54,446 nt of DNA, from positions 1-54,446 of the IMG/VR virus record IMGVR_UViG_3300022929_000034; one strand, given 5' to 3'. A program made the translations under genes and the position numbers. Under the pieces are notes generated by a model. The model saw only the letters and a list, made by a program, of their open reading frames with translations. It was not told the origin of the DNA and did no database searches. Positions 149 through 47,255 of the stretch are shown here, piece by piece. This DNA comes from a virus. Its lineage: Duplodnaviria; Caudoviricetes. The first letter of the stretch is position 1. Each line of letters begins with the position of its first letter.

Positions 149-344
149 GGTCGTAGCTGTCCATGGTCTCTACCATGTTGGAGTAAAAGTCAGGCGACTC
201 TTCCGGGCCGGACGTCTCCATGCTGACTACAGCAGAGCCGTCGGGCATCTCCACAACGTCGGATATGTCGTCAGGCAGCTCAACGTCCGCCGATCCGTCT
301 TCGTTCAGCTCGGGGTCGTTTAGATCGTCTTGTTCTGCCATCAT
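1..344 (-). CDS. Portal protein, N-terminal part (continues across the join into 54298..52192)
   Basis: ATG at 344 (or 341) overlaps the upstream stop. Reads MMAEQDDLNDPELNEDGSADVELPDD...LGMRYVNLLDKD, in frame with ORF 52192..54438; full length about 816 aa. Confidence 0.9.
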   Translation of the reverse strand, partial: MMAEQDDLNDPELNEDGSADVELPDDISDVVEMPDGSAVVSMETSGPEESPDFYSNMVETMDSYDLNSLGMRYVNLLDKDKNAREERDKQYEEGMKRTGLGKDAPGGDNFYGAS

Positions 345-3300: not shown

Positions 3301-3364
3301 CGCCGGTCCCCTTTGGACGGGGCAGCGTTTGGGCCAACCGGTCGATAGGGGAGTAGAAGCTCAC
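341..3364 (-). CDS. Large polyvalent-type virion cargo protein with C-terminal ADP-ribosyltransferase-like domain
   Basis: 1007 aa. N-terminal module (LPGGKNYREILL...IEELQSDWHQQGR...GMKGFYD), middle module (KAYKLFR...AYRPGWH...YRYKTNPNM) and ART-PolyVal-like module (LYHGT...EFD...GAGFHLAESP.VA..YA...VMPV...NP...GYDGI). Modules are separated by AxGG motifs. Confidence 0.7.
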   Translation of the reverse strand: MSFYSPIDRLAQTLPRPKGTGAEFMTELSKMPGYKAQEAEDRGLQALMNLPKMERAQFMEALKSKPPVVPKVTNNDGTDDPRYLTREERLYGDNENQAFHEQYTLPGGKNYREILLQHPKGKFEGVETHFGGTPNILASVRAKDRTGPNGEKIFHIEELQSDWHQQGREHGYRAEGEAKRLSGEPYKIAEDEYGIRWSDGSVDDDGHSEQYARRIAAQGKLTGKVPNAPFKKNWHEMALKKMIHHAAENGYDSIAITPGAEQADRYNLAKHIDSMIVGKENDGTYSLAANKSGKEVIKRDNIPKSELEPLVGKEMAQRIIEGAGKDIGHGEQEYSGLDLQVGGEGMKGFYDKIVPNFLNQFGKKYGAKVQPGMVSIVSTPAQHHGLTEREFQALPPNAQQDMVRQHAYAHQGAKTEVPVHTFPITPEMREDVTKNGVPLYADGGSVEGEEPKKTVKAYKLFRVHPKHPGKLFPLFVDANTPVEMDKWIDAKEGEMAKGKVKSKIGPLAYRPGWHAGDLPIATHIGEKSDPSLTAPDVRPENHAWAEVEMPDDVDWQAEATKRGTNAQGRVIPVKAHITDQIPKGGHYRYKTNPNMTGNWLIGGSMKVNRVLTDKEVAKINKAAGLADLPRAQPFKAKKFGFAGGGTVAPDEWKAEAHVNHMADGGPVPPLRPLSPQLAAMREQLAQQAALHKAYNEAMTYVNTNQMPTFKDWVASQGKAGGGKVKPLSEQFNFGKAEEFDPIGNAKKSLSGAYDMVSKIPGNLKRLVTDPVAYAKSLPAPNEGQLYGAFMPGNIGFVGAANAPMSVAMRTILPAAEREANLAKMLEGSAIKKQLYHGTGKNIEEFDKSKLKRVGYGAGFHLAESPGVANVYARQAGEGANVMPVHAAIKNPFIEVEGGPYYWQLPGKSDLEKTNWLKSQGYDGIKYEHGALTKNESPYAWVAFEPTQIKSAIGNEGTYDLTNPNITKAAGGSIKPVGYTKEQVTVSPNLDAMRYELMSVKHYSKKVK

Positions 3365-5097
3365 AGTGGGCGCTCCGTCATTTGGATGTCATGGGTCGAT
3401 CCGCCGCGCGCCATGCGTGGCCCTGTAGGGCCGGGGCGCTGTGGCATGGCCTGTGGGTTCGGCCGCATGGCCTGCATGGCTTGGCCTTGGGGCGTCAATG
3501 CAAGGATGTTGCTTTGGGGTGCCCCGGGCCGTGGTGGAGGGGCTGGTGACTGTCCGAGCATAGCTGGTGACTGTCCGAGCATAGCTGGTGGCTGCCCGGG
3601 CGGTGGCGGCAGGCCACCCTGCGGCTGGCCGGGCTGCATGGGCATCATCTGGTTGCCGGGCGTCAGGGGCTGGAAGTCCACGCCACCAATAGGTAAGCCC
3701 TCGCCGTTGCCGCCGTTGGGCGACACGAACGCTTTGATGGGCAGGTCGGGTGCCTCATTGACGCCGACGTCCTTGATGTTCATCAAGTTGGGTGCCTTGT
3801 GCATCATCAGGCTGGCCAACATGGTGTCCTTGTCGGGTTCAACATGGCCGCCGTCAGCATATCCAACGGCTCCGCCCTCTGCTTTGCCAGCATAGGCTTT
3901 GCCGGTCAACAGCATGTCGCGGGCGGTCTCAGGTGTTACGCCAAGGCGATGCGCGGTCATCATGATGTTGCGGGCCAGCAGCTCTAGCTTGCCTGCGCCA
4001 ATTGGTGTGTCCACGCCGGTCTGCGGTGCAAACGTGCCCCATGCGCGTCCTTGCGCTGGGCCAGCCTCAAGGCCGAGCTTGGCGGCGATCTGTTCGCGCC
4101 ACCACGGCGCAAGCAAGGTCATCTCAGGGTTGGTAACACTCGCCCCGGGGATTGCCTCTCGGCCCTTGACCATTTTGCGGTTGCGGGTGTCGGCCAATCC
4201 AACGCCACGGCTCCAGTGCGCGTCACCAACAGGAGTTGCTGTTTGGAAACCGGTCTCCGGTACGCCGCTGGATTGGATGTAGAGCGGCACCTTGGGCGTT
4301 TTCATGGTCATTTCACCAGACGCCAGATACTTGTCCATTGGTCCGGCTTGGGCGGTCTTGTGGTACGCGTGGCCGGGCACGTTGCGGATGTCTGCCGGAA
4401 ACCTGCGAGTGCGCTTGTCCTCGGCTTTACCGGCGTGCTTCAGGAACTCACCAAAACGCCCCTGAGTGCTCATCATGTAGGCCGCTGTTCCACGCGGAAT
4501 CTCGGTCATGACCTCGCTGGCCGGAGATGCCATGCCCATCAAATGGTTGAGCTTGTCGTACTCACGTATGGCGTTTTCCTTGCCAATGAGCTGCGCCATG
4601 CGCTGAAACGCCGGGTCCATGATGTACCACGGGTCCATGCCTTGGATCAGCGCGTGGTGCTTCTCGGCCTCCCCTAGCACGTCAAGAATGCGTTGCTCGT
4701 TTCTAGACGTCATCACCTTGGCGGCGGCTTCCGATCCTCGTGGCTTGGCGGCGGCACCGGGTAGAGTGCCCGGCAGGTTACCCTTACGGCCCTTGCCCAT
4801 TTGGAACAAGTCCTCGCGGGTGACGCCGAACAAACGCTTGAGCGATGGATCTTCTGGCTCTACGCGGGCAGCCGCTTCTTTGGCGATCACGTCCGGGCGT
4901 TTGTATATCCCGGGAAACGCGTTGCGCTGGGGGTTGTTGACGGTCTGGGTTTTAGGGTCTAGCGCTGCCTTGGCGGCTGCCACGCGGGGGCTGTCAACAA
5001 TATTGCCGTCATCGTCATCATCCGGTTGGCCACCGCCTTTTAGATGCCGAGTCCGGCTCATCAGCTCACGCAGCATCTGCTCGATTGACAGTTTCAC
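3361..5097 (-). CDS. Putative virion cargo protein with HhH DNA-glycosylase-like core and P/Q-rich tail
   Basis: 578 aa. Spaced motifs WY...ASP...K...VGDAHWSR...AQGRAW resemble phage HhH-glycosylase-like proteins; four AxGG-type motifs flank the core. Confidence 0.5.
   Translation of the reverse strand: MKLSIEQMLRELMSRTRHLKGGGQPDDDDDGNIVDSPRVAAAKAALDPKTQTVNNPQRNAFPGIYKRPDVIAKEAAARVEPEDPSLKRLFGVTREDLFQMGKGRKGNLPGTLPGAAAKPRGSEAAAKVMTSRNEQRILDVLGEAEKHHALIQGMDPWYIMDPAFQRMAQLIGKENAIREYDKLNHLMGMASPASEVMTEIPRGTAAYMMSTQGRFGEFLKHAGKAEDKRTRRFPADIRNVPGHAYHKTAQAGPMDKYLASGEMTMKTPKVPLYIQSSGVPETGFQTATPVGDAHWSRGVGLADTRNRKMVKGREAIPGASVTNPEMTLLAPWWREQIAAKLGLEAGPAQGRAWGTFAPQTGVDTPIGAGKLELLARNIMMTAHRLGVTPETARDMLLTGKAYAGKAEGGAVGYADGGHVEPDKDTMLASLMMHKAPNLMNIKDVGVNEAPDLPIKAFVSPNGGNGEGLPIGGVDFQPLTPGNQMMPMQPGQPQGGLPPPPGQPPAMLGQSPAMLGQSPAPPPRPGAPQSNILALTPQGQAMQAMRPNPQAMPQRPGPTGPRMARGGSTHDIQMTERPL
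3542..3590. repeat. 21-bp tandem duplication encoding PAMLGQS x2
   Basis: gctggtgactgtccgagcata twice plus a partial third copy. Confidence 0.9.
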
Positions 5098-24737: not shown

Positions 24738-26258
24738 TTATTTTGGTCCCGTTAGGTTGCCGTAGTTTAGGGCGTCATACCCTGCGTATAACGCAGATGG
24801 TATTTGCATAAGAGTACCGGCACCAACAACGGGAGGAATGCCAGTGGATTCTGCTATTGCACCAAGCGTCCCTAAACCATGCACGGCCATACGGCCGTAA
24901 TTTCCTTTTTTGTAGTCCTCGTAAGCCTGCTCGGCTTCGTACGGGGCGACTGCAGCACCGGCCATGGGCACAAACCGTTTTCCTATGTTCCCAATCACGC
25001 GCAACCCGTTGACAACCCGGTTTGTAAACCGGTTGTCCTGCGGGGCTTGCGCGTTGGGCCTTTTTGCCAACAGCCTGTTGTACTCGGCTTCGTTTTCTAG
25101 GGCCGTTTGCCGCGCCCTTTCAACTGCCGAGGGCATCGCCGGGGCGGCTGACATATGCGCCTTCAAAGCAGCCCGGTGCTCTTTTAACGCGTCCGCTGCG
25201 GCTTTTTGCCGCTCCTGCATGCTCTCGGCTCTGGCGTCCGCAGCGACTTGGGCCGCAGCGATCTGATTGGTAATCACCCGTTTCTGTTGAGCCCGCGCAT
25301 CAAGCTCGGCTTGGTGTGCGGCGTTTTCTTGTGCCAATTGTGGCTCAACTATCTCGGATGGGGCCAGCACCCCGCTCCTAGTTGGACTCATGCCGGGGGC
25401 TTTGGATATGGCCTCATCGGGGTTCAAACCCATGGCCCCGAGAACAGACGTTGCCTCACGATTGCGCGCCGCATTTGCTGCGCTGGTCTCGTTCGAGCTG
25501 GTCCAACGCCGGTCGTTTCGGCCGTAGTATTCTTTTTCCTTGGGTTTGGGCGCAGATTCTTGTTGCGGGGGCGGCCCCATCCGCTCATGCAGTTCCATCT
25601 CAGGATCGCGAATCTTATGCACGTTTTGCTCGGCCCGCGCGGCATGTAGATCGCGCGTAGCCATCTCGTGTGCGTCTTGAAGCGCCTGCGCGCGGGCTTC
25701 CATGCGCTGTAGTTCATTTGCGTGCTCTTGCACAGCCTGCTCGTGGGCTTGAATGATGGGATCGTGGGCTTTGAGCTGTGCTTGGGCCTGCTCGTGTTTT
25801 TCTTGCACCGTCTTAAAACCCGTCGTATTTGCTTCCGCTGCCAAGTTTTCTGGGGTGCCCGGTACATACTGTGGGAGTATCGCTTTGGTAGCCGAATTGA
25901 TAGCTTGACCGGCAAGAATACCGCCCAGCGCTTCTGCACCGTAATCAACGCCCGGTTGCATTGGCACAGGCAATAATTTCTTGATGTCTTCGTACTTGCG
26001 GGTGACCGGGTTCATGGCATCACGCCGTGCCTGCTCCGATGTAACCTGATCAAGTTCTTTTTGACGCTCCTTGGCTATGGCCGCCGCTATCTGGTCATCC
26101 ATGCCCACGGCCGGTATTAGCATGCTAGGCTGCTCAACAACAACCCCGGCGGGAGCACCAGCAGGTGCGGCACCGGTTTCGTGCGCGACGATGGCCGACA
26201 TGGCCGCCTGTAAGTCTTCAGGCGACATTTGGGCTGTTGAGTTTTTTCCGTCGGCCAT
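24738..26258 (-). CDS. Putative ejection/internal virion protein
   Basis: 506 aa; helical A/Q/E-rich with C-terminal glycine-rich hydrophobic segments; last gene of the late operon. Confidence 0.6.
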   Translation of the reverse strand: MADGKNSTAQMSPEDLQAAMSAIVAHETGAAPAGAPAGVVVEQPSMLIPAVGMDDQIAAAIAKERQKELDQVTSEQARRDAMNPVTRKYEDIKKLLPVPMQPGVDYGAEALGGILAGQAINSATKAILPQYVPGTPENLAAEANTTGFKTVQEKHEQAQAQLKAHDPIIQAHEQAVQEHANELQRMEARAQALQDAHEMATRDLHAARAEQNVHKIRDPEMELHERMGPPPQQESAPKPKEKEYYGRNDRRWTSSNETSAANAARNREATSVLGAMGLNPDEAISKAPGMSPTRSGVLAPSEIVEPQLAQENAAHQAELDARAQQKRVITNQIAAAQVAADARAESMQERQKAAADALKEHRAALKAHMSAAPAMPSAVERARQTALENEAEYNRLLAKRPNAQAPQDNRFTNRVVNGLRVIGNIGKRFVPMAGAAVAPYEAEQAYEDYKKGNYGRMAVHGLGTLGAIAESTGIPPVVGAGTLMQIPSALYAGYDALNYGNLTGPK

Positions 26259-26260
26259 TA

Positions 26261-28204
26261 CTATTTCCCTCCACTGTAAAGTTTAGCAATCCTCTGGCGT
26301 TCTTTTTCCAAACGGGCTCTGTGTACTTCTTCTTCCGTAAGGAGGGCCGGGTGCTTAATGCTATCAGCGGCAGGAGAAAGGCTGCCCGCGTCAATGGCTT
26401 TTTGGTATTGTTTTCGCCAAGCCTCGGCCACATTTGCGCGGTGTTCAAAATTCAGTTGCGCATTCTTGATGCCCGCGTACTGTGCCACCGGTGTCTTGTC
26501 TATGTCAATGTTCGAGGTGAGGTAGCCCTTCACGGCACCCGTCAAATCTTTTTCTTTGTTGGGGTCAATGCCACTTCCTAACAGCCCGTAGTACACCCCC
26601 TTACCCAGCAGCGCGGTGTAGTCGTCAAAGGTGGACCACAGATCTTTGGGCAAACTGTTTTTCAATGCGCTGAGGACATCCACATTGAAGTTGGCCCCGT
26701 AGCCCATCAGGGAAACACCAACGCCTTTTTGCGCAAGTGTTCCGGCAAAACCGCCTTGTTCTCTGAGCAAGTTGGACATCCGGGCAATTTCAGGTTGGTG
26801 CTTTAGGGTGAAATCTTCCAGTTTTGCAAAAGTATCTTTTGCATTGGCTTGTAACCCCGGAGCAAGCAGCAGTTGCGACTGGACGTAGTTATCGTATGGG
26901 ACCGCTTCAGCTTTTAGGGCATTGGCTTTTACAACTTCATTTCGTTGGTCTATACCAGCTTTTTGTACGGCGTTGAAAGTAGCAGGATACGGTTCCAATT
27001 TATTGGATACCGTTACAGGAATGCTTTCAATTTTCGCTCGTGCGGCGGCGGCAGCGGCGGCGGGATCGGCAGGTGCGGCCGCAGGGGCTGCGGTGGCTAC
27101 CGCAGCCGCAGAAGGTGTGCGTGACCAATGATTGGCTTCTATTCCGCTGCCCTGTTTCCAACCGTTTTTAATTAGCAGTTGTTTTTGCGCTTCGGTTATT
27201 TTGCCTACGTCAATTGCGTTGCCGGTAAAGTGCAGACTATCCTCCCCGATGGGGTGCCCTTCTTTCGTGAACCATTTACCATCTTTTTGGTAACCGGTTT
27301 TTCGTAAATTTTCTTGGTCTTCAGGCGTGCGAACTTGGCTGATAATAGGGATTCCAAGTTTGGACAAAGCCAGACCGTCTTCGTTAACCTTAGCGCCGTT
27401 TGGCAGAAGCGTAACTTTGGCCTTCGCAGCAGCATCAGCCGCAACAGCAGCCGCATCAGGGGCTTTTGCAGCAGCAGCCGCATCAGGGGTTTTTGCAGCA
27501 GCAGCAGCCGCAGCAGCATCAGTTTCCCCCGCACCGCCAGTTACTTTTTTACCCACGCCACCAACGGTTTCGGTCGGCTCACGCAATTTGTTAGGAGTAA
27601 GCGGGCCGTACGCAGCTTCCACGGCGGCCAATGCGTCCGCGTAATCTTTTGGGTTTGCAAAACCGCCAGCAGCATTTAGTTCTCTGACTTTAGTCAACGC
27701 ATTTCCGTACTGGGTGGACCGTGTTGCGGCCTCTGACGCAGCCAATCGTTGGCTTTCTTGCATTGTTTTGAGTTCGGCGTCCGCTGCTTTGGCTTGCGCC
27801 GAATTTGGAGCTAAATTAACTAGTTTAGATACGTATTGCGGTGTTAAAGGATCGCCTTTGAGCAACCGAGCTGCTTCCATATCCGCAGCCGTTTTGTTGT
27901 TGTTCATAATTGCCTTGGTCATGGCAAGTTGAATGCGCATTTGTGCAATAGGCAATTGTGATTCGCGTTGTTTTTCTACATTCTGGCCAAGGGCCTCTCC
28001 GGCACTCCCCAAGGAAGCCATGAAACCACCCGGCTGGTACTTCAGAAGGCCAGCGGCTACGTTAAACCAGTTCGGTTGCTCATAACGTTGCTGAAGCGCC
28101 TTCATCGCATCCTGCAGCGAATTTTGGTACTCGGTTATGTCCTCGTCCTTAGCACCATAAAAGTTTAGCTTTTCAGGACCGGGAAGATTGGATTGTTCAG
28201 CCAT
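26261..28204 (-). CDS. Putative ejection protein with inserted peptidase M15-like (peptidoglycan hydrolase) domain
   Basis: IISQVRTPEDQ..L...SLHFTGNAIDV...GW......EANHW between Ala-rich linkers. Confidence 0.65.
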   Translation of the reverse strand: MAEQSNLPGPEKLNFYGAKDEDITEYQNSLQDAMKALQQRYEQPNWFNVAAGLLKYQPGGFMASLGSAGEALGQNVEKQRESQLPIAQMRIQLAMTKAIMNNNKTAADMEAARLLKGDPLTPQYVSKLVNLAPNSAQAKAADAELKTMQESQRLAASEAATRSTQYGNALTKVRELNAAGGFANPKDYADALAAVEAAYGPLTPNKLREPTETVGGVGKKVTGGAGETDAAAAAAAAKTPDAAAAAKAPDAAAVAADAAAKAKVTLLPNGAKVNEDGLALSKLGIPIISQVRTPEDQENLRKTGYQKDGKWFTKEGHPIGEDSLHFTGNAIDVGKITEAQKQLLIKNGWKQGSGIEANHWSRTPSAAAVATAAPAAAPADPAAAAAAARAKIESIPVTVSNKLEPYPATFNAVQKAGIDQRNEVVKANALKAEAVPYDNYVQSQLLLAPGLQANAKDTFAKLEDFTLKHQPEIARMSNLLREQGGFAGTLAQKGVGVSLMGYGANFNVDVLSALKNSLPKDLWSTFDDYTALLGKGVYYGLLGSGIDPNKEKDLTGAVKGYLTSNIDIDKTPVAQYAGIKNAQLNFEHRANVAEAWRKQYQKAIDAGSLSPAADSIKHPALLTEEEVHRARLEKERQRIAKLYSGGK

Positions 28205-28214
28205 GATCTACGCC

Positions 28215-29555
28215 TTATTGTGCAAAGTAATCTTCGTTGTAATTACTGTAATCTGGAATATACGGGGGCGTGTAAGGTTCTGTGGGCGTTGTATATCCAG
28301 TGTCTAACGGACCACCCGCACTAGGATTGTTTTCAATTATCCTTCCTGTGTACACCGGATTGCTGCCAACTATTTCGTAGCCGGGGTTTAGATTTCCGTT
28401 ATCGTCGTAAGGCGTGCCTGTTATTGGTCCAGAACCACCGCCGCCGCTTGGGTTGTAAGAGCTTCCGCTAGTAGCGTAGTTGTAAGCGCTCTTAGCGGCA
28501 CCCTTGATGCCGCCCCACGCATCCCCTGCAGCCGATCCTATTGAGGGTGCCAGCGCGTCGTAAACCGACCTGCCACCATAACCCGGGGATTGGAACAAGC
28601 CCGTGGCCAATGCGCCCAAGCCAGCGATGGCCGACAAAGGCGACCCGGTGGCGTTCTGGATGGTGGTCGTCGGGATCTGCGCGCCGCTCATGGCCGCCAT
28701 CTGCCGGGCCGCCACGTCCAGCGGGAACAGTTGCTGATTCTGCGCAATGGTCTGCTGTTGGCCGCCAAGGGTCGACAGCGCGTTGACATCCGCCAGCCCG
28801 CTTGCCTGCTGCTGTTGGCCAAGGTTGATCTGGCCGGTCGCGGCATTGTTCAAAGCCTGCGCCTGTTGCGATGCAGCATTACCGGCAACCTGCGCCGCCG
28901 TGGCTTGGTTTTGGTTGTACTGGTTCTGCAGGGTGCCTGCCGTGCTGCCCGCCGTGAGCTGATTGGCACGCTGCTGCTGGGCCGCCTGCAAGGCATTGGT
29001 GTACCCGGTCTGGAGGGCCTGACTCTGCAGCCCAAGCGCGCCGATGTTGGCATTGGAAATGCCCAGCGCGAGGGCGTTTGCGCCCCGCTGGGAGCCGAAT
29101 TGGCCTGACCCTACCGCACCCGAGGTGATGGACGGGGAAAGGTTCTGGGCGATGTTCTGCTGGTTCGCAAGCCGGATCTGGTCCACCACGCCACTGGTGT
29201 ACGGGTTCATGTAGTCGCCGACCAAATCGGCGGCGCTGGATGTACCGGATTGCAGGTACGGGTTGGCCTGCGTCAGGCCGCTCACCGCCGTGTTGTTCAG
29301 GTAGGGCTGGGTTGCCCCGGAAATATCCGTACCAGCGGCCGCCCCAAAGTTTGTTCCGGCGGCAGTCAGCGCGGGCTGGTAGTTGCCTTGGTTTTTGCTT
29401 ACATCGGTGAACGCCTGCGTCTGGAGCGGCGAAGCGCCTACAAATTGGGCCGCGTTCGCACCAGCAGTGCCACGGGTGGCTATGTTGTTGAGATAGTCGG
29501 TGTAATACTGCGGCGTCGTCGTGGCCGTTGTTGCGTAACTGTCAGTTAGTGCCAT
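28215..29555 (-). CDS. Putative DNA transfer/pilot (ejection) protein
   Basis: Q/A/G-rich; YMNPY...GQFGSQRG...GQQQ pattern; SPLSAIAGLGALATG. Confidence 0.7.
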   Translation of the reverse strand: MALTDSYATTATTTPQYYTDYLNNIATRGTAGANAAQFVGASPLQTQAFTDVSKNQGNYQPALTAAGTNFGAAAGTDISGATQPYLNNTAVSGLTQANPYLQSGTSSAADLVGDYMNPYTSGVVDQIRLANQQNIAQNLSPSITSGAVGSGQFGSQRGANALALGISNANIGALGLQSQALQTGYTNALQAAQQQRANQLTAGSTAGTLQNQYNQNQATAAQVAGNAASQQAQALNNAATGQINLGQQQQASGLADVNALSTLGGQQQTIAQNQQLFPLDVAARQMAAMSGAQIPTTTIQNATGSPLSAIAGLGALATGLFQSPGYGGRSVYDALAPSIGSAAGDAWGGIKGAAKSAYNYATSGSSYNPSGGGGSGPITGTPYDDNGNLNPGYEIVGSNPVYTGRIIENNPSAGGPLDTGYTTPTEPYTPPYIPDYSNYNEDYFAQ

Positions 29556-31695
29556 GATTTTTGCCTTTCGACTTCAGGTATTCTAACGGCGACTTGGCGT
29601 CCGGGGGCAGTTTGTCTGGGGGCGCAGACCGGGCGCGGGATCGGATCGCCTGCACCATCTGGTCCAATTCCTTGGCCCCGGCCTTGTTGGAGCCGTTACC
29701 CAGCGCGGAGACCACATCGGCGCTGAAGACATACTCACCGTTGGCCAGCATGGCCGTGATGTCGTCGCTGGTCCCGTCGCCCTTGCCTTCCACGTACTTG
29801 CCGCCCAGCCCGCTCAAGCCACCGGTGCGGAACACCGGGGTCCCGTCGTAGTTGGGGTGCTGGTGGTCATCAGGCTGTCCGCCCTCGGCCAGATGCATCC
29901 CACGGGACTGCAGCAGGGCCGCAAGCTGCGGCAGCACCTTTGGAGGGGTGTAGGTGCCGGTCTGGCCAAGACGCATGACCTGAGCGTTTTGGGGCGTGGC
30001 TTCCAACGCGCCGACGCCTGCCAAGGCTCTGAGGCCGGACATGATCTTGTCGTTTTGTTTTTGCTGGCCCAAGTCCTTGTAGTACCGCAAGTTCTGCTGC
30101 ATGGCCTCGTACGCTGCCTGCTGTTGGGGGGTGCGCGCCGGTGTCTGCGTTTCTGTGGACGTTGAGTCAACAAGGTCGCCGTCTTTAAAATGTTGCACAG
30201 GGCCGCCGGATGCGTACATGGCTGACTCAAACGGCAACGCGCTCATCTTGGCAATATCTTGCGCCGCCGTGGCACTGCCAATCGGCCCGTAATTCATGGC
30301 CAAATCTTCTGTCGGCTTTAAGTTGAGCTGAGTCAAATTTTGCGAGTACGGTGTGTACTTAGAGCCACCCCTGTCTCCGACGTAAGCTAGGCCAGAAGAT
30401 GGCGACATTAGTGATGGCATGTTAAGACCTCGTGCAGTGTCAGTAGATGAAATATTTCTGGTTGCGGGGGCAGCGGAAGACGATGGGGCGGGCGAAGATT
30501 CCGTGGTTGGTTTTAAGTTACCAGAATTTAAGATGTTGTTGACATCGGCATCGGTGCCGCCACCAAAATATGGCGTAGATGCGGTTGAATCTCTTGGCCC
30601 ACTTCCGATACCAATACTCGCCAATCCTTTGTCGACCGTATTAGACAACGCGCCGCTTACATTCGGCCCGACATTCAACGGCGATGCTATGTTTTTGGTA
30701 AGGCTTGAAAGATTTGATGTTCTTGCAAGTATTGATACCGAAAACGGGTCCATCCCGGTTTCTTTGGCAAAATACTTGACGGCCGCAACATTTGCCATTG
30801 ATGCCACGCCATCGCCGTACTGCCCGCTAAGAGCGGCCCTGAACATAGCCGGATTGACGCCCATCAATGTGGCCACCCGATCACCAACAAGGCTCACTAT
30901 GGCCTGACCGGGTGTTATCCTCCCGGACGCCAAGTCCGCAGCGAATTTTGCTACTACGTACCCCGGAACCAGTGGCGCAAGTATGCTGACGGTCTTGTCA
31001 ATAAACGTATCAAAATTTTGCGCGGCAATGACATTTTCTGCGCTTTGGTTTGTGTTTCCGCTGACACCATACACGCCGCCAAGGCCAACTTCGCCTAGGG
31101 CCTTGAGTAATTGACGGTCCACTGGCAAACCCGTCAAATCACTGGGGCTTACCGTGAATTTCAAATCATTTTGTTCTGTCGCTTCAGAATTTTTTGTTGC
31201 TGGCTTAAGCCAGTTATCTCGTTCGGTTTGGGTAAATTGTTTTAGTAAATTTGCTTGGTCAAGAGGGCTGACAGGGCCTGCTTCTTGGGCCGTCTTGTAG
31301 GCTGTCCTGTAGGCGTCACGGGCGTCGTTAATATTGACTTGCCTATCAAGAGCGGCTTGTTGCTCAGGCGTGCGCTTTATATCTGTAAAAGAATCCAGCG
31401 GTGAATTGGCTACCGGGCGGAAAGGAACAACATTAGGGTCCCCATCCGGCGCGTCAGAAAGGCCGCTCCATGAAGGATCAGTAGTATCTGCCGGGGCGTT
31501 ATCTGCCGGGGCGTTATCTGCTGGGGCGTTATCCGCAGGGGCGTTATCGGCCGAGGCGTTATCCCCGTTGTTATCCCCGTTGTTATCCCCGTTGTTATTG
31601 TTGAACGCGCGGCTGGTGTTGTCGCCCCCGTTGTCGCCTCCATCGCCCCCGCCATCAGCCCCACCGCCATCTTCAAAATAATGAATTCTGCGCAT
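29542..31695 (-). CDS. Internal virion protein with AxGG motifs and C-terminal 'GDGTSDDI..MLANGEYV' domain
   Basis: ATG at 31695 with GAGGAG RBS. Motifs FEDGG, YASGG, LAEGG, FRTGG; the C-terminal domain resembles the one at tape-measure C-termini. Confidence 0.7.
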   Translation of the reverse strand: MRRIHYFEDGGGADGGGDGGDNGGDNTSRAFNNNNGDNNGDNNGDNASADNAPADNAPADNAPADNAPADTTDPSWSGLSDAPDGDPNVVPFRPVANSPLDSFTDIKRTPEQQAALDRQVNINDARDAYRTAYKTAQEAGPVSPLDQANLLKQFTQTERDNWLKPATKNSEATEQNDLKFTVSPSDLTGLPVDRQLLKALGEVGLGGVYGVSGNTNQSAENVIAAQNFDTFIDKTVSILAPLVPGYVVAKFAADLASGRITPGQAIVSLVGDRVATLMGVNPAMFRAALSGQYGDGVASMANVAAVKYFAKETGMDPFSVSILARTSNLSSLTKNIASPLNVGPNVSGALSNTVDKGLASIGIGSGPRDSTASTPYFGGGTDADVNNILNSGNLKPTTESSPAPSSSAAPATRNISSTDTARGLNMPSLMSPSSGLAYVGDRGGSKYTPYSQNLTQLNLKPTEDLAMNYGPIGSATAAQDIAKMSALPFESAMYASGGPVQHFKDGDLVDSTSTETQTPARTPQQQAAYEAMQQNLRYYKDLGQQKQNDKIMSGLRALAGVGALEATPQNAQVMRLGQTGTYTPPKVLPQLAALLQSRGMHLAEGGQPDDHQHPNYDGTPVFRTGGLSGLGGKYVEGKGDGTSDDITAMLANGEYVFSADVVSALGNGSNKAGAKELDQMVQAIRSRARSAPPDKLPPDAKSPLEYLKSKGKNHGTN
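31491..31600. repeat. Coding tandem repeats (DNAPA)n and (DNNG)n
   Basis: 15-bp ggggcgttatctgcc-like units and 12-bp gttgttatcccc units. Confidence 0.85.
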
Positions 31696-31697
31696 GG

Positions 31698-31940
31698 CTA
31701 TCTCCTCAACGAATTGTTGAGGGCGAAGGCCCAGTCTTGCCACGTATCAAAGTTGCGACTATCCGGCGCGCCAGCGAAACGACCGATACCGGCAATACCA
31801 TCAGCCCACTCGTGCCAGCGCTCTTCTTCAATAGTCCCAAGCTGGTTGGCGGCAAACAGGCCAGCCATCGACGCGCACCAGAAGTCCCACTCCATGCCGC
31901 GTGGGTCAAATATTTGCCGTGAGTCAATTGCGGTGATCAT
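31698..31940 (-). CDS. Hypothetical virion-associated protein
   Basis: 80 aa, W-rich (DPRGMEWD.W...FDTWQDWA). Confidence 0.75.
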   Translation of the reverse strand: MITAIDSRQIFDPRGMEWDFWCASMAGLFAANQLGTIEEERWHEWADGIAGIGRFAGAPDSRNFDTWQDWAFALNNSLRR

Positions 31941-33958
31941 GGGTTGCCCGTGGAACGCACGTCGCCGGTGGTGATGGACAGAAGCACCCGCCCGGTCTGG
32001 TAGGTGCCGTTGTAGGTATTCGACTCAAACCGCAGCCGCATCTCGCGGCGCTGCTCACGCATATCGATCTTGAGCGTGTTCGGTGAGAACGTGTAAGGCG
32101 CGGAATCTACGGGTACATCGTCCGCGTAGCCTTCACCCGTCACCACCACGGTCATGTCGCCGACCTGCACGAAGTCCGGCTCAATGCGCTCAAGGCGGGT
32201 CCACAGGTTATCGCCGGGCTGCTGCTGGGTGCCCACAAGCCCGCCAAGCGTACCGACGCTGTAAGTCTCAAAATAGCTCTGGACGGCATTTGAGTTGGTC
32301 AAATAGATTTGGTCGTAGCCAGTCTCGTGTTGCCACAGGGTGTAGGTCCCGGCGCTGTTGGCCTCGTTACCGGCCCAAATGGGTTTCGGAAATACCTCCG
32401 AGAACACCCCTGCGGAACGGCGCGCGCCGAGGGCCTGCCCGGCGTCGTACCAGACTTTCTCCCGGGTGTTGTAGATGATGGCGTCGGTGCATTCCGTCGC
32501 GTCGCCTTTGGGGTAGAACCACCAGATCTCACCGTAGCGCGGCACCTTGGTAGCCCAGACCTTCTGGCGCTGGGCATAGTTCAGGTTGTCAAAAAAGTAG
32601 TTCTCGCAGTACTTGTTCGGGATCTCCTGCACCACGCCGTTGTAGGCAAGAAACCGGTCCACGCCGCACCAGTAAAAAATTCCGTCGTACTCGATCACGC
32701 TGTTGGAGGACATGATGGACGTCTGGCTGCTCACCAAGTCGTAGGCCCAGTAGTAATTCACGCCGCCCGAGCTGGACGGCTGGAAGCTCACGCGTATCAG
32801 CGCATCAGCAGCCCAGAACAGGCCGCTGGGCGACGTTGAGCCGCCCCGGATGGGTAGCCCCTTGACAATCTTGCCGGTGGCCACGTTGGTCGCGTTGGCG
32901 TCCGGGGAGACCCAGTTCGCAAAGTCACCGGCGCTGGAATTCTGGATTAGGCCGTTGTTGCCGTAAATGAACAGGTACGGGTGGATAACCACGCACCCGC
33001 CGGAAACGGCGATATTGTTGTCAAAGGTGGCCGTGATGGTCGCCGACGCGGTGGCCGCTGCGGACATCACCACGGTGGTACTGGCCACCGACACCACGGT
33101 CGTACCTGCAGGGATGCCGGTGCCGGTGATGCTCTGACCGGCAGCAATTCTGACATTTGCGGCAGCAAGAGTAAAAGTTGTCGTGGTATTGGTTGTCCCC
33201 ACCGCAGTGAACAGGCCCACCTTGGACAGCGACGGCGCGGCGGTGTAGGTCAGGCCGGTTGGCGTGCCCGCAGTTGTGACCACCGCAGCGCCGCCATAGG
33301 TCGCGGACAAGGTAAACGTCGTAGACCCGTTGGTGGCGATGATGAAGTACGTTGTCGGGTTCGTGTACCCGGTGATGCTGCCGGTGCCGCCGTATGTTCC
33401 GCTGATCGCAAGCTGCTGGCCCACCGTCAAAATTACGCCGGAGTTAGAGCAAGAAAATTGGCCAGCCGTGCCGGTAATGGCCACGCCGGTCAGGTAACCA
33501 AAGCTGCCCGGAAACGTGCCGTACAGCACCGGCGTATTCACCGAAGAGGTAATGAACCGCAAGTTCTGGCCGGGATGCGCCACCAAGTTGTTGGTGTTGT
33601 TGCCGGTGGAGTCGTATGCAATATCAAACTGCCACAAATTGTCATCGCTGGCGGTAAAATTGTTCAGGGTGTAGTTGTACGGCCCCGAACCGCTTCCGCC
33701 GCTGCTGCTGGTGACCCACTGCTGCAGGCCGTTGTTGTAGCCGGAGACCACGTAATTGAAGCCGTTGATGGCGGTCATGGCCATGCCACGCGAGATGTTT
33801 GTGGCGTTCAAGAAGATGCCGTCGTACCCGCCGATCTTGCGGGGCCGACCGCGTTGGAAGCGGACCCACTTACCGTCAACGTAGCAAGGTGAATCGAACA
33901 TGGTTCCGTCCCGCTGAATCCCAGCGGGGACCTCCATCGATATGACCTTTGCTGTCAT
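31937..33958 (-). CDS. Tail nozzle / packaged-DNA stabilisation protein (P22 gp10-like)
   Basis: Real start ATG 33958 (MTAKVISM...DGKWVRF..GRPRKIGG); beta-rich, EIWWFYP...IIYN..E..WY; 673 aa. Confidence 0.75.
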   Translation of the reverse strand: MTAKVISMEVPAGIQRDGTMFDSPCYVDGKWVRFQRGRPRKIGGYDGIFLNATNISRGMAMTAINGFNYVVSGYNNGLQQWVTSSSGGSGSGPYNYTLNNFTASDDNLWQFDIAYDSTGNNTNNLVAHPGQNLRFITSSVNTPVLYGTFPGSFGYLTGVAITGTAGQFSCSNSGVILTVGQQLAISGTYGGTGSITGYTNPTTYFIIATNGSTTFTLSATYGGAAVVTTAGTPTGLTYTAAPSLSKVGLFTAVGTTNTTTTFTLAAANVRIAAGQSITGTGIPAGTTVVSVASTTVVMSAAATASATITATFDNNIAVSGGCVVIHPYLFIYGNNGLIQNSSAGDFANWVSPDANATNVATGKIVKGLPIRGGSTSPSGLFWAADALIRVSFQPSSSGGVNYYWAYDLVSSQTSIMSSNSVIEYDGIFYWCGVDRFLAYNGVVQEIPNKYCENYFFDNLNYAQRQKVWATKVPRYGEIWWFYPKGDATECTDAIIYNTREKVWYDAGQALGARRSAGVFSEVFPKPIWAGNEANSAGTYTLWQHETGYDQIYLTNSNAVQSYFETYSVGTLGGLVGTQQQPGDNLWTRLERIEPDFVQVGDMTVVVTGEGYADDVPVDSAPYTFSPNTLKIDMREQRREMRLRFESNTYNGTYQTGRVLLSITTGDVRSTGNP

Positions 33959-35181: not shown

Positions 35182-35182
35182 G

Positions 35183-35824
35183 TTAAGAGTCCTGTGCTAC
35201 TGCTTGGCGGTCACCGATGCGGAGCTGGTCTTCGGTCTTCAGCGCGGCCATCGCGGCGTCAAACATCTGCGACCACACGGCCAAGCGCGCGTCGTCTTTG
35301 AGGAAGGGCGCGGTCTGCTTGAGCGTGCCAAAGAGCAACGCATTGGGCGCGTTGCGGGTAAGCCAATTGGTTTGGTTGCTGGACGACAACGGAGTCAGCC
35401 GGGTGTAGCAGAGCGCCTCAAAAGCAAAATTGGCGCTGGGCGTCGGGGCAATGAACCAGTTGTCGTAGTCGTAGTCGGCGTAGTACAGCGGCGTGCCGGT
35501 GGCGGTCACGTCGGGCGCGTAGCTGCTGAGGTACTCCAGCTTGCGCAGGTACACCGGCTGCTTTTCACCGCTGGCAAGAGTGAGGGTCATGGATACCGTC
35601 TTGCGCCACAGCGCGGGCTTGGCGATCACCGGGTTGCTGGCGGTCATTGTGCCGTCTGCCACGATCATTTGGCCAAGGGTCTTGATGTCCTGCGCGATCT
35701 CAAACTCCGCCAGCATGACGGCGGTGGGGATGAAATTGACGACCGCAGCATCGCTACGCTCCAGATACTGGAGCACCAGAGTGCTCAGGCCATCGTAGGT
35801 CAGCGCGTAAGCGGTCGTAGCCAT
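35183..35824 (-). CDS. Tail tubular / adaptor protein
   Basis: TYD.L...V..YLER...IAPTP...NWL..NAP.ALL.G.L pattern of podovirus adaptor proteins. Confidence 0.7.
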   Translation of the reverse strand: MATTAYALTYDGLSTLVLQYLERSDAAVVNFIPTAVMLAEFEIAQDIKTLGQMIVADGTMTASNPVIAKPALWRKTVSMTLTLASGEKQPVYLRKLEYLSSYAPDVTATGTPLYYADYDYDNWFIAPTPSANFAFEALCYTRLTPLSSSNQTNWLTRNAPNALLFGTLKQTAPFLKDDARLAVWSQMFDAAMAALKTEDQLRIGDRQAVAQDS

Positions 35825-43787: not shown

Positions 43788-44477
43788 TTAGAAGTTAGGG
43801 TTTTTCTTTGCGGGCTTGTGGGTCGACACACCGCACGCAGCGAGGCTGATTTTGCCACCCTTGGCGTACTGTTTTACCGCGCCGCCTTTTTTCATCGGCC
43901 CCGGTCTATCGTCGTACGTTGACCGGTATCGTTGAGAAACCGCTTTATTTTCTGGGCTGAGGGTATCAAACGTGCTTAACGGAGGTTCTTTTTCACGGTT
44001 AAATGTTGGAAAAAGACCGTCTTCGCTAAATTCTTTTTTAAGTACCGCTCCAACTACGGGACGGGCCATTTTCAACGCTCGGATAGCAGGGTTCAGTGAA
44101 GCCAACCCCAAACCCGCCTCAAGAACAGCTTCTTTGTCTACGTCCTTGTAGATGTCAACATCACGTCCTTGGTCCACCAATGAACGTGCTCTTAGTTTAG
44201 GGGTTTCATCTTTGGAATATGTGGCCCCTTGGGTTGTAACGGGCGCACCGATAGACCTGCTCATGCTTGGCAAAGCATCCGTGCTTGTCTGAATGTCTTC
44301 TGCCTTTTTTGAGCTTTCGCCCGGGTCTTTCCTGCGAACCAGACCCTTGTCCATGTTCAGCAGGTCGCGCAAAGTTTTGTCGTTGCCGTATTGCTTTTGA
44401 AAATCGGCAAGCTCCTTTGCGGAGACCTTAGCCTTCCCGTTTACGACTTCACGATCTGGGTTTGGTGTATACGCCAT
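43788..44477 (-). CDS. Putative internal head protein with C-terminal KKGG/AKGG tag
   Basis: Ends MKKGGAVKQYAKGGKISLAACGVSTHKPAKKNPNF. Confidence 0.7.
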   Translation of the reverse strand: MAYTPNPDREVVNGKAKVSAKELADFQKQYGNDKTLRDLLNMDKGLVRRKDPGESSKKAEDIQTSTDALPSMSRSIGAPVTTQGATYSKDETPKLRARSLVDQGRDVDIYKDVDKEAVLEAGLGLASLNPAIRALKMARPVVGAVLKKEFSEDGLFPTFNREKEPPLSTFDTLSPENKAVSQRYRSTYDDRPGPMKKGGAVKQYAKGGKISLAACGVSTHKPAKKNPNF

Positions 44478-44486
44478 GCTTGTTAC

Positions 44487-44852
44487 TTACCAATTTGATT
44501 TTTTCTTGCTGGGCGTGCAGGTAGACACCTTGCAGTCCTTTAGGCTGATAGCGCCGCCTTTAGCTTTTATTAAGGGGGTTTGACGCACCTGAGCCGCCTG
44601 CCTACGTGCCCGCATTCCTTGAGCGGTATCGTCTTGCGTAAACCCAGCTTCTTGCTCCTGAGCTTTGGTCACATCATTAAACCCTTGGTCGGTTGTGGCA
44701 TCAAATTTTGCCTTCAGACGGTTGTACGTATCCGCGTCTTGCAACTCGGTTCTTTTTTGAGAACCCAAGTTGGTGTAAAAATACTGCGGTTGGCCGGTAG
44801 CCTTATTTACCTCAGTGGTAAAACTATATTGCGGTGCGTAATCATCAGCCAT
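44487..44852 (-). CDS. Putative internal head protein with C-terminal AKGG tag
   Basis: Ends KAKGGAISLKDCKVSTCTPSKKKSNW. Confidence 0.7.
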   Translation of the reverse strand: MADDYAPQYSFTTEVNKATGQPQYFYTNLGSQKRTELQDADTYNRLKAKFDATTDQGFNDVTKAQEQEAGFTQDDTAQGMRARRQAAQVRQTPLIKAKGGAISLKDCKVSTCTPSKKKSNW

Positions 44853-44861
44853 GGTTACTCC

Positions 44862-45113
44862 TTACCAGCCGGGACAGTTCCAGCGTTGCATAGATGCCCG
44901 TGAACGGCTTCCTTTTTCGCTCTTCTCGGCGACAGGACCCATGCGGGCACAGAATGAGTCGCGCCGGGCACCGCCTTGCGGTTGAGGTGCTTTCAGATGC
45001 GATCCGGTTTCACTGTTGTACTTTGCTCGGCCTTTGGCTGTGAGCCCTGCGCCTTGCTTGGCAGGCAGCTTTTCACCACGACCGATAGCCAAAGACGGGT
45101 TCTTTTTTGCCAT
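44862..45113 (-). CDS. Small basic protein of the 'RR.SFCARM' phage family
   Basis: GLTAKGRAKYN..TGS.LKAP...RRDSFCARM...RWNC. Confidence 0.75.
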   Translation of the reverse strand: MAKKNPSLAIGRGEKLPAKQGAGLTAKGRAKYNSETGSHLKAPQPQGGARRDSFCARMGPVAEKSEKGSRSRASMQRWNCPGW

Positions 45114-45116
45114 GAT

Positions 45117-45566
45117 TCACCAGCAAGACTTTGTGGCCTTGCCGCCTGTTTTCATTTTGGCGGTTTTTGCTGATTGCTTGAAGGCGTCAGCAGTTGGCGC
45201 ACCTTTGCTACCAGCTCTGCGCATTTTTTCGCCAGAGCCTGCAGCAATTCGCTTACGTTTTGCTTGAATGTTGGCATACAAGCCACCTTCTTTCATTTTA
45301 TTGGCCGAAAATAATTTTTCCACAATTTGCACCCGCTCAGGTTTGGTTGTTGCGTGACTGACAATTTTCAAACGCTCTGGTTTGCTCTTGCCCTCTTCGT
45401 AGAACCCGGCTTTTTTCAAAGACTGGACTACCCCGCCATTTTTCATTTTGTCGGCCTTGACAAACTCTTTGCCGACCTTCTGCGGAACGCCACCAAACCC
45501 GCCCTTGGTGTGGGCTGCGGCCTCCATCAGGCGGTGTTGGGCTGGTGACTTGCTTGGCATGGTCAA
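45117..45566 (-). CDS. Basic multi-module protein punctuated by MKxGG motifs
   Basis: MPSKS..Q.R.M.A module, MKNGG, insert, MKEGG, GLYANI.AKR.RI..GSGEKMR module, MKTGG. Confidence 0.75.
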   Translation of the reverse strand: MTMPSKSPAQHRLMEAAAHTKGGFGGVPQKVGKEFVKADKMKNGGVVQSLKKAGFYEEGKSKPERLKIVSHATTKPERVQIVEKLFSANKMKEGGLYANIQAKRKRIAAGSGEKMRRAGSKGAPTADAFKQSAKTAKMKTGGKATKSCW

Positions 45567-45973
45567 CTAGCGTAATGCTTTTGCATTTCCAGCACCACGG
45601 TGTATGCATCGCCTGCGCTACCGTCAAACGTAGTGAAAGAAATACTTCCTGTCTTGCCTGTACCAGCGTTGTTGGTGAGACCGCCAATTTTGGAATAGTC
45701 TTGCGTATACTGACTGTTCTGCGGAATGAGTTCAATCACCACGGGCGCAGTAGCGACCCAGTTCATCTGCACTTCCAACCCGTGGGTCAACGCCGTAACC
45801 TTCAGAATAGTCACCGCGTCACAAGCCCCGCCAGCAGCAGATGCCGTCAGAGTCGAAGGATTTACCTTGACGACGGCTGACTCGTTTTCGGTCGCGCTCA
45901 TGGTCGCGTAAAACTTCATGATGGCAATGCGCTCACCATCAAAAAGCGTTTGAGAGGTAGCCGTTATAGCCAT
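45563..45973 (-). CDS. Hypothetical virion protein
   Basis: MAITATSQTLFDGER...; GGAG RBS before ATG 45973. Confidence 0.75.
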   Translation of the reverse strand: MAITATSQTLFDGERIAIMKFYATMSATENESAVVKVNPSTLTASAAGGACDAVTILKVTALTHGLEVQMNWVATAPVVIELIPQNSQYTQDYSKIGGLTNNAGTGKTGSISFTTFDGSAGDAYTVVLEMQKHYAS

Positions 45974-45981
45974 AAAAATCT

Positions 45982-46010
45982 CCAAAGAAAGCGGGGGCCG
46001 AAGCCCCCAC
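45982..46010 (-). terminator. Rho-independent terminator
   Basis: GUGGGGGC-UUCG-GCCCCCGC-UUUCUUU. Confidence 0.8.
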
Positions 46011-46016
46011 TTGTTT

Positions 46017-47255
46017 TTAGCAAGCGCGCCCGCCTGTTTTGCGGGTCATTGTGGGGTTTACAAAGCCCCGTCCTGCCCCGGCATTTGGCCGGATGCCAAG
46101 CAGCCGTTTGACAGAGTCCATCACCGGAGTAGCTTCGTTCTCACGACGGGTGACGTCTTTTTCAGCCTCCCGACGACGAGCTTCCCGCTCAACAGTAGGA
46201 TCATACCCATCATCCGCCGTGGGCATGCCGCCCTCAGCCTTATGGACTACCTTGCCGCCCTTTTTAAAGGTGCCGGACTGCAGGCTGTTGGCCACCGGCC
46301 GCGAGACCGGCTTGCGAGGCATTGCTACGGCGTGGCCAGCGTTGTTAACACTGCCCCCCGTAGCGAAATGCTTTTTTGCAGCACCGCCTTTTTTGTAGCC
46401 GCCGCCGTTGCCTTCTTTGACGCCGCCAGTGGTGGTGTTGGTCTTGCCGGGAGGAGTACCGTCAGCCGGGCGATTTTCCCAGTTGACTTCGCCGCCCTTC
46501 TTGAACCCACCAGCGTTGGCCATACGCACGCCGCCAGTGCCGCTTGCGCCATCTTTCTTGGCTTGGTAGACTTTGGTGGTCTTGTACGAGCCCGACGAGG
46601 TTTCTGAGGGGATGGAGCCGCCGGTGGCGTAGCCAGCCGGTTTGCCCATCTTGACCTCGCCAGTGCCGTGCGCCTTGTCGGTTTTGTCGCCGTCAACCAC
46701 CTTGGTCGTGCCGCCTTTGCGCAGCTTCAGCTTGGTGCCCTTGCCGCCCATGTGCTCTTGCATGTCGTGCTGCTTGAAAGCCTTCTTGATCATGGCCTTG
46801 TCTTGGCCCATGTCACCGCCTTTTGCCATGCCGCCTTTTTTCATGGCCGGGGCCATGGGGGCTGCCATAGGGGCTGCGGGAGCCGCCATTCCGGGACGCA
46901 TAGCGCCACGTTGGGCCATCATGCGCATCATGAGCGCCTTCTTCATAGCGGGGCTCATCATTGCGCCAGCGCCCATGGGAGCGCCCATAGGGGCACCCAT
47001 CATGCCGCCGTCAGCCTTTTTGGCCACGCCGCCCTTTTTGGACATCAGCATGGGTGCCTTCATGGACTTGCGACGCTCCATGATGGAAGGCTTCTTGGGA
47101 GACTTGCCGGGAGGGGCAAATTTACCGTCAGCCGCTTCCATCGGCATGGTGCTCTTCATGGCGGAGTGGCCAGCAACATGGCCGCCTTTTTTGAGCTTCA
47201 GCTCAACTGTAGGCTCAGTGGTCATCATTTTGACCATTGGTTTGAATTGGCCCAT
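46017..47255 (-). CDS. Lys/Gly/Met-rich core protein with about 13 xxxGG motifs
   Basis: 412 aa low-complexity basic protein; AAGGAG RBS. Confidence 0.8.
   Translation of the reverse strand: MGQFKPMVKMMTTEPTVELKLKKGGHVAGHSAMKSTMPMEAADGKFAPPGKSPKKPSIMERRKSMKAPMLMSKKGGVAKKADGGMMGAPMGAPMGAGAMMSPAMKKALMMRMMAQRGAMRPGMAAPAAPMAAPMAPAMKKGGMAKGGDMGQDKAMIKKAFKQHDMQEHMGGKGTKLKLRKGGTTKVVDGDKTDKAHGTGEVKMGKPAGYATGGSIPSETSSGSYKTTKVYQAKKDGASGTGGVRMANAGGFKKGGEVNWENRPADGTPPGKTNTTTGGVKEGNGGGYKKGGAAKKHFATGGSVNNAGHAVAMPRKPVSRPVANSLQSGTFKKGGKVVHKAEGGMPTADDGYDPTVEREARRREAEKDVTRRENEATPVMDSVKRLLGIRPNAGAGRGFVNPTMTRKTGGRAC

Follow-up and report, generated by a model that had tools for sequence, protein, structure and literature searches.

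Why does a phage that seems to lack a tape measure carry a protein that ends like one? The question is raised by the virus record IMGVR_UViG_3300022929_000034 (Duplodnaviria; Caudoviricetes), which we analysed over its whole length of 54,446 nucleotides, hereafter the window, and within it by a minus-strand gene at 29545..31695. A first-pass annotation made from the letters alone had seen a tape-measure-type domain at the C terminus of the encoded protein, and supposed that it acts in trans on Gly-Gly tags carried by many proteins of the phage. Podophage ejection proteins are regarded as functional analogues of tape measures, and sequence links between the two are rare; the C-terminal module described here is one such link.

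The gene lies in a listed open reading frame (ORF) of 733 amino acids (29542..31743, minus strand; stop codon 29542-29544), whose residue numbers we use throughout and which harbours the peptide quoted in the first-pass annotation (residues 638-678, which places it arithmetically at window 29710-29832). The listed GTG is probably not the true start, and translation would begin at Met17 (ATG at 31693-31695), giving 717 amino acids: 9 of 17 homologues start there, and an upstream 80-residue ORF ends at 31698, three bases ahead of the ATG. In an end-to-end alignment of 18 proteins of similar length, the window protein and its 17 homologues (A1), the N-terminal two thirds carry variable low-complexity repeats; the last 150 residues account for 58 of the 70 invariant columns.

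This conserved end, which we call the module, comprises residues 617-726 (about 110 residues; 29566..29895, minus strand), as delimited by a local hmmsearch with a profile, A3, made from the window copy and 79 IMG/VR copies (80 loci were fetched and one, L047, was dropped; E 4.9e-47). A genome search places it at 29566-29898. A phmmer search of the full library with residues 620-733 met 9465 cluster representatives at E<=1e-3, of which 2260 reach E<=1e-10; judged by sequence, the match between module copies is far beyond chance. We took position, length and tag counts on relatives from 150 matches listed from this search. The core G-x-G-x-G-x-S-D-x-[IV] begins 73-131 residues (median 80) before the C terminus in every one of these 150, on carrier proteins of 123-1956 amino acids; the hairpin unit described below is duplicated in 54. 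Module proteins in the 79 loci measure 226-1991 amino acids, and Ser40, Asp41 and Glu51 of the module are invariant in all 80 copies of A3. Pfam, applied to 28 of the 150 listed relatives, found N-terminal families that vary (DUF4214, GDSL lipase, RTX, RHS) or none, and none that covers the module. The module is likewise unnamed in NCBIfam and the ESM Atlas, where it met unnamed viral clusters only; Pfam had no match on the whole 733-residue protein at E<=0.1, and cultured carriers are annotated 'hypothetical' or 'tape measure'.

The likeness to tape measures resides in a unit at residues 646-701 (29641..29808, minus strand), which runs from a Gly-rich loop containing Ser-Asp through a beta-hairpin around G-E-Y-V and a short helix into the first part of a long helix, the secondary structure being taken from low-confidence models. 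Residues 647-701 fall in four PHROG families, three of them named tape measure protein (TMP). Over all copies the module matched 12 PHROG families, 7 of which bear that name (6090, 3547, 25241, 5448, 23013, 17300 and 934), with phrog_6090 matched by 80/80 copies and phrog_3547 by 78/80. Among PDB sequences, A3 found mycobacteriophage Douge gp16 (E 8.9e-12; two copies, 952-1007 and 1409-1450 of 1699) and Pseudomonas phage JBD30 gp46 (E 6e-4; 1018-1054 of 1158). By these profile comparisons the first half of the module and a unit that many tape measures carry in their C-terminal half are homologous. The tape-measure-type domain seen in the first pass is thus borne out by the TMP families and by Douge and JBD30, and the link that it drew to siphovirus tape measures holds for several TMP families.

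The PHROG TMP matches span positions 27-82 of the 114-residue module, and matches to PDB and PHROGs alike stop at about position 82; as far as sequence tells, the rest of the long helix and a conserved Pro/Lys-rich terminal peptide (residues 710-723; 29575..29616, minus strand; invariant P95, L101 and Y103 in A3) are specific to the terminal form. At the other edge of the unit stands a tag (residues 638-642; 29818..29832, minus strand), and in the TMP copies matched by A3 a tag likewise sits directly ahead of the Gly loop, so that this proximal tag belongs to the unit and is not a separate ligand. At least one hydrophobic-x-x-G-G tag lies within 60 residues upstream of the core in 137/150 listed relatives.

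Might the 733-residue protein itself be the tape measure? We rejected this, since its TMP matches in PHROGs are local only (647-701 of 733), Pfam TMP families do not match it (Tape_meas_lam_C, PF09718, has no match at E<=0.1), and no tail-tube or chaperone gene was found. The window is the whole record of an uncultured virus, rated 100% complete, with one module copy; family scans recognised portal, terminase, capsid, fibres, adaptor and nozzle, and among the window ORFs scanned they met no tail-tube, sheath or chaperone family. By these gene assignments the phage is a podophage without a tape measure, as the first pass had supposed.

The position of the gene agrees with a role in ejection. 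The order is adaptor, fibre, nozzle, an 80-residue ORF, the module protein and then proteins of 446, 647 and 506 amino acids, so the module gene stands just downstream of the nozzle gene and opens the cassette. The remainder of the cassette occupies 24738..29555 on the minus strand: 446 amino acids at 28215-29555 and 506 at 24738-26258, neither with a Pfam or NCBIfam family, and 647 at 26261-28204, with a weak VanY-like stretch (Pfam E 0.08) and a tag at its extreme end. The cassette thus lies beside tail and nozzle genes and has a candidate cell-wall hydrolase member, as is expected of podophage ejection proteins. PHROGs run on 38 ORFs of five related loci gave the same order, followed downstream of the module gene by lysin domains (L027 and L040) or a 'DNA ejection protein' (L034). 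Upstream sequence of 3.5 kb or more is available for 58 of the 79 loci; in all 58 a nozzle-like ORF precedes the module gene (within 1 kb in 47), and 56 have an adaptor-like ORF. The gene order here and in the related loci upholds the first-pass placement, by which the domain ends a tagged protein whose gene directly precedes the other ejection genes. We found no published description of a tape-measure-type end on an ejection protein, and with A3 at E up to 1 the module is absent from T7, P22, BcepC6B, epsilon15 and BPP-1.

The authors of the JBD30 structure predict, in the available portions of their report, that two helices and a beta-hairpin within TMP residues 1022-1066 make up a hook by which the TMP is retained in the baseplate (PMC11445458); this is the stretch matched by A3. 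Only the last 33 residues of that TMP are resolved (PMC11445458), and in Douge gp16 only 1658-1699 (PMC13033339). AlphaFold2 modelled residues 620-733 with predicted local distance difference test scores (pLDDT) of 49.8 (30 sequences) and 50.6 (80 sequences); in these low-confidence models the G-E-Y-V turn forms a short hairpin, and module positions 56-61, 68-86 and 100-108 are helical. Neither monomer model has a confident globular fold or groove, though each holds two tags in cis. We read the low pLDDT as the mark of a partner-dependent element; a shallow family alignment could also account for it.

We tentatively favour, at somewhat less than even odds, the reading that residues 617-726 are a partner-dependent docking end of tape-measure type on the first ejection protein, comparable to the distal end of a tape measure. 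The homology suggests that the module and the distal region of siphophage TMPs share an evolutionary origin as one device. The module would fold only against a partner, which may be the nozzle or the tail-channel lumen while the particle is intact, the opened tip of the tail once ejection has taken place, or both. With its C-terminal end held on the particle, the protein would send its variable N-terminal body into the cell envelope before the DNA follows. The hydrophobic-x-x-Gly-Gly tag that precedes the unit would serve as its first strand; some ten further late proteins carry orphan tags, which would probably engage a site of the same kind or else mark points of processing, as in T5 pb2 and perhaps lambda gpH. 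This reading is supported by a terminal, near-invariant module behind an N-terminal part that varies from about 100 to about 1900 residues, and by the place of the gene between nozzle and ejection genes. The homology to tape measures, the low pLDDT and the published cases of JBD30 and T5 speak for it as well.

Any account of the module also has to deal with the tags. We defined a strict tag as [FYMLW][AK]xGG, called ORFs crudely and greedily, and compared counts with 200 shuffles within each protein. The window holds 23 strict tags against 4.6 expected, and 0/200 shuffles reach 23; the Gly-Gly tags named in the first pass are a real motif. Two of these matches, in a fibre protein rich in glycine, probably arose by chance. 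Every strict tag falls in an ORF of the late region (12,856 amino acids), and the early region (4,904 amino acids) has none. Over 120 tags from seven genomes the logo reads [YFML]-[AK]-x-G-G-x-V, with Val at +6 in 51. Besides the proximal tag, the module protein has a second upstream tag (residues 618-622; 29878..29892) that is nearly invariant in A1, a mid-protein tag (510-514; 30202..30216) conserved within an otherwise variable stretch, and an N-terminal tag (22-27, or 6-11 counted from Met17; 31663..31680) present in 9/17 homologues, all on the minus strand.

Tags also occur on proteins without any module. A minus-strand group of four such orphan-tag proteins at 43788..47255 encodes 412 amino acids with 8 strict tags (46017-47255), 149 with 3 (45117-45566), 121 with a laxer tag-like motif (44487-44852) and 229 with 2 (43788-44477). 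The 412-residue protein is very basic and rich in Met, Ala, Pro, Lys and Gly, and its strict and laxer tags are spaced by 10-120 residues; weak homologues with the same tags occur in three related loci (L065, L072 and L073), and proteins of 399-506 amino acids with 9-11 tags in the genomes G002, G003 and MW202545. Neither Pfam nor NCBIfam has a family for the 412-, 149- and 229-residue proteins. The adjacent 229- and 121-residue proteins share a tail made of a tag, a short Cys-containing Lys-rich peptide and a final aromatic residue; the 149- and 412-residue proteins likewise end in a tag plus Cys, and these ends may be a shared C-terminal signal. After the terminase, two large tagged virion or cargo proteins occupy 341..5097 on the minus strand: a polyvalent protein of 1007 amino acids (341-3364) and one of 578 (3361-5097). 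Lysin-like at its N terminus, the former also has a phrog_30118 domain and, C-terminally, an ART-PolyVal ADP-ribosyltransferase domain (E 1.2e-19); its tags lie between domains, and it is probably packaged and injected.

We then asked how tags distribute over genomes. Counts on loci of +/-10 kb were too narrow, because the tag-rich genes of the window lie 13-17 kb from the module gene, and were replaced by whole-genome counts. Tags are enriched in 8 of 10 genomes with the terminal module (the window, G001-G005, MW202545 and DSL-LC04, of which G004 is the weakest, 5/200 shuffles reaching its count), the two others being GB2A and Pag-Yong1; they are enriched in none of five podophages without it (T7, P22, BcepC6B, epsilon15 and BPP-1) and none of three siphophages (lambda, T5 and JBD30). 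JBD30, which bears the TMP form of the unit, is not enriched, with 16/200 shuffles reaching the observed count. In this sample tag enrichment goes with the terminal module, 8/10 versus 0/8, so the correlation of domain presence with tag counts that the first pass had proposed to look for is seen, apart from the two module genomes without enrichment. The association is not independent evidence for a functional link, because the positive genomes are mutual relatives.

Two side observations concern the exceptions. The module of the Caulobacter phage GB2A (L002 6510-8249, record 34062-35801) is of TMP flavour, and its protein ends in a tag at the extreme C terminus in a genome without tag enrichment. 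In the Planktothrix phage Pag-Yong1 (L137 3268-4218), the gene that follows the one for the 294-residue module protein is annotated with peptidase S74, an autoprocessing domain.

The lambda motifs named in the first pass are present: tags stand at 733-737 and 778-782 of gpH and flank G-E-F-V at 754-757; gpH is also processed on its C-terminal side, by a cut within the Gly-rich region at about 690-730, for which the available portions of the report give neither an exact site nor the protease (PMC12617516). The homology to the module is weak: hhalign gives E 9.5e-4 at a probability of 22%, and the Ser-Asp of the core is missing in the lambda copy. Pfam Tape_meas_lam_C covers only 627-701 of gpH, upstream of the stretch with tags and G-E-F-V. 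The 120 proteins listed when gpH residues 690-853 served as query are all 99-100% identical, which leaves no diversity for a profile bridge.

Several points weigh against docking. With the A3 profile in HMMER, lambda gpH and T5 pb2 are not significant, and their C-terminal parts share 0 of the 12 PHROG families matched by the module. The unit is unresolved in all solved TMP structures, in the portions of those reports available to us, so that its role as a hook is a published prediction and not an observation; the two Douge units lie about 250 and about 700 residues from the hub-bound end, so that the unit itself is not the resolved hub contact. The last 25 conserved residues of the module have, by sequence, no counterpart in TMPs. 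Docking pure and simple also leaves the tag enrichment of the module genomes unexplained. The readings weighed below are not mutually exclusive with docking.

On one of them, the tags would be points at which a protease of the phage or the host cuts, and the module would be the piece set free or kept, like the C-terminal fragments of lambda gpH and T5 pb2; in a stronger form the unit itself catalyses the cut. T5 pb2 is cleaved after R1127, the last 43 residues of the resulting pb2* sit between hub subunits after ejection (PMC10038345), and in translation the 92-residue C-fragment starts A-E-G-G and goes on to a G-E...E-V-V stretch. Set beside the tag positions, the published cut sites of lambda and T5 both lie just upstream of a tag-plus-hairpin element. 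The interdomain tags of the 1007-residue polyvalent protein would suit cleavage points, and an invariant Ser, Asp and Glu would suit a catalyst. Yet no peptidase or autoprocessing family, such as Peptidase_S74, matches the module in Pfam or NCBIfam, some 80 residues without a confident fold are small for a protease, and the lambda copy lacks the Ser-Asp. Nor was a prohead protease recognised in the window, where a 319-residue ORF matched nothing in the PDB; neither HMMER nor PHROGs establish that the T5 and lambda segments are homologous to the module; and no test marks the 733-residue protein as an enzyme. We consider processing unlikely. The proposal nearest to the first pass, that the module reads tags, would have it bind, in trans and by beta-strand addition, the hydrophobic-[A/K]-x-G-G-x-V strands that other virion proteins carry; cargo would in this way be recruited, ordered or towed. 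It draws on the excess of tags in late genes, on their defined logo, on their recurrence in small basic multi-tag proteins and in ejection proteins of relatives, and on an enrichment that tracks the module; since the unit carries one tag of its own, orphan tags could substitute for its first element. Against this stand GB2A and Pag-Yong1, which have the module without the enrichment, JBD30, whose TMP form goes with none, the interrelatedness of the module genomes, by which the association may reflect shared descent, and a modelled construct that shows no confident fold or groove even with two tags in cis. A predicted complex of the A3 module with residues 130-225 of the 412-residue multi-tag protein scored 0.00, controls were not run, and the result speaks neither for nor against binding. 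A tag reader in trans seems to us quite improbable.

The module could instead be an encapsidation signal, an address that loads the protein into the procapsid through the portal, the scaffold or the inner capsid surface and has no part at the tail tip, the tags being the same address on other cargo. A constant terminal module on hypervariable bodies suits an address label, and the tagged proteins include a polyvalent ART protein of a kind predicted, in the available portions of PMC5512222, to be packaged and injected. The nearest named Atlas cluster is the crassvirus cargo-protein domain crAss_CARG1, at a score of 0.85 that is often reached by chance and makes it a lead only; the hidden Markov model of Pfam for Crassvirus cargo protein 1 (PF25725) has no match, and Pfam finds no family on the 733-residue protein at all. 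The homologous unit, moreover, sits in tape measures, which are proteins of the tail lumen and never encapsidated, and we regard an encapsidation signal, too, as unlikely. A further idea is that the hydrophobic-[A/K]-x-G-G-x-V tags form a virion-wide address or processing code, read by the module or by its site on the nozzle, which sets the order in which a dozen ejection and cargo proteins are packaged, exit or are cleaved, and that the same code marks the cuts in lambda gpH and T5 pb2. If true it would link tape-measure maturation to podophage cargo handling, though we hold such a code to be a long shot.

The genes around the module gene call for some corrections. The tail nozzle gene encodes 673 amino acids at 31937..33958 on the minus strand (phrog_3287; PDB 8zkm_E and 8zkk_O, titled 'nozzle', E 5e-7 to 9e-7). 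A listed ORF of 1049 amino acids at 31937-35086 on that strand was discarded as an artefact, the frame merely staying open upstream: the match to the nozzle family is confined to its last 673 residues, and its upstream part overlaps the real tail-fibre gene, 33958-35181, in another frame. The head-to-tail adaptor lies at 35183..35824, minus strand (Pfam SU10_adaptor, E 1.1e-20; PDB 9nwi_A and 7z47_A, the adaptors of Pa223 and SU10). Between the nozzle and module genes, the 80-residue ORF (31698..31940, minus strand) has no Pfam or PHROG family, and a small ORF occupies the same place in related loci. A plus-strand ORF at 29561..29851 overlaps the module gene and is without any support.

Three further features were seen in passing. 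Near the N terminus of the module protein, tandem DNA arrays at 31485-31598 (a 15-base unit x5.3 and a 12-base unit x3.4) encode Asn/Ala/Pro/Asp and Gly/Asp/Asn repeats whose length varies among homologues. Beside the endolysin gene, a 165-residue minus-strand ORF (36355-36852) has a weak Pfam TMP_3 match, E 1.3e-4 and below the cutoff, and is too short for a tape measure. By the portal gene, a 151-residue minus-strand ORF (51342-51797) has a weak GroES/Cpn10 match (Pfam E 6.5e-4, just under the cutoff; phrog_3188, co-chaperonin).

The module is very common, with thousands of clusters at 50% identity, and has neither a Pfam nor an NCBIfam model. The unit is already implicit in the TMP families of PHROGs. 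Pfam, NCBIfam and the available portions of the full-text literature hold no description of the unit, of a terminal module on podophage ejection proteins or of the tags; a full-text search with the motif strings and 'tape measure' gave no relevant paper, and the available text of the polyvalent-protein paper mentions neither 'linker' nor 'glycine' (PMC5512222). The module covers a stretch of lambda gpH, JBD30 gp46 and Douge gp16 that lacks a resolved structure and an explained function, near processing sites of an unknown protease. The tags would be a new short linear motif common to many packaged proteins. Together, module and tags offer a handle on what keeps ejection proteins in the tail channel and lets them go, on tape-measure cleavage and on the addressing of cargo proteins.

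How does this arrangement compare with known systems? Crassvirus cargo proteins likewise have a short peptide common to several otherwise unrelated packaged proteins. The internal-protein targeting sequence of T4 is reportedly another such short peptide, shared by packaged proteins that are otherwise unrelated. The tags of the window differ from these capsid-targeting and cargo tags in being internal, in numbering up to 8-11 per protein and in occurring also in proteins of the tail lumen.

The distal region of siphophage TMPs resembles the module element by element, in its tag, its G-x-G-x-G-x-S-D loop, its hairpin around G-E-[FY]-[VI] and its short helix ending in Gly, and there the unit sits in the C-terminal half of a protein that leaves the virion before the DNA. 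Here, in contrast, the module is strictly terminal and has an additional conserved helix and a Pro/Lys-rich end, whereas TMP copies may be internal or duplicated far from the C terminus. In the C-terminal fragment of lambda gpH, two tags surround a G-E-F-V hairpin (733-782), between the Gly-rich processing region and the only resolved part, 818-849, which is bound to gpI; the stretch is unresolved and without an assigned function in the available portions of that report (PMC12617516), and with no Ser-Asp in a Gly loop its likeness to the module is at the level of motifs only. T5 pb2 is like the module in that its cut directly precedes an A-E-G-G tag and G-E...E-V-V, and the new C terminus of pb2* docks at the hub (PMC10038345); it is unlike it in having no detectable sequence homology, and the T5 stretch has been read as a metallopeptidase motif, which is absent from the module.

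Closest in genetic setting are the podophage ejection proteins themselves, gp14/15/16 of T7, gp7/20/16 of P22 and gp53/54/56 of Pa223, which likewise form a cassette of three to four genes beside tail genes, one with a cell-wall hydrolase. They and the products of the module cassette would alike be expected to be packaged and then ejected, building a conduit across the cell envelope (bioRxiv 10.1101/2025.06.11.659172, available portions).

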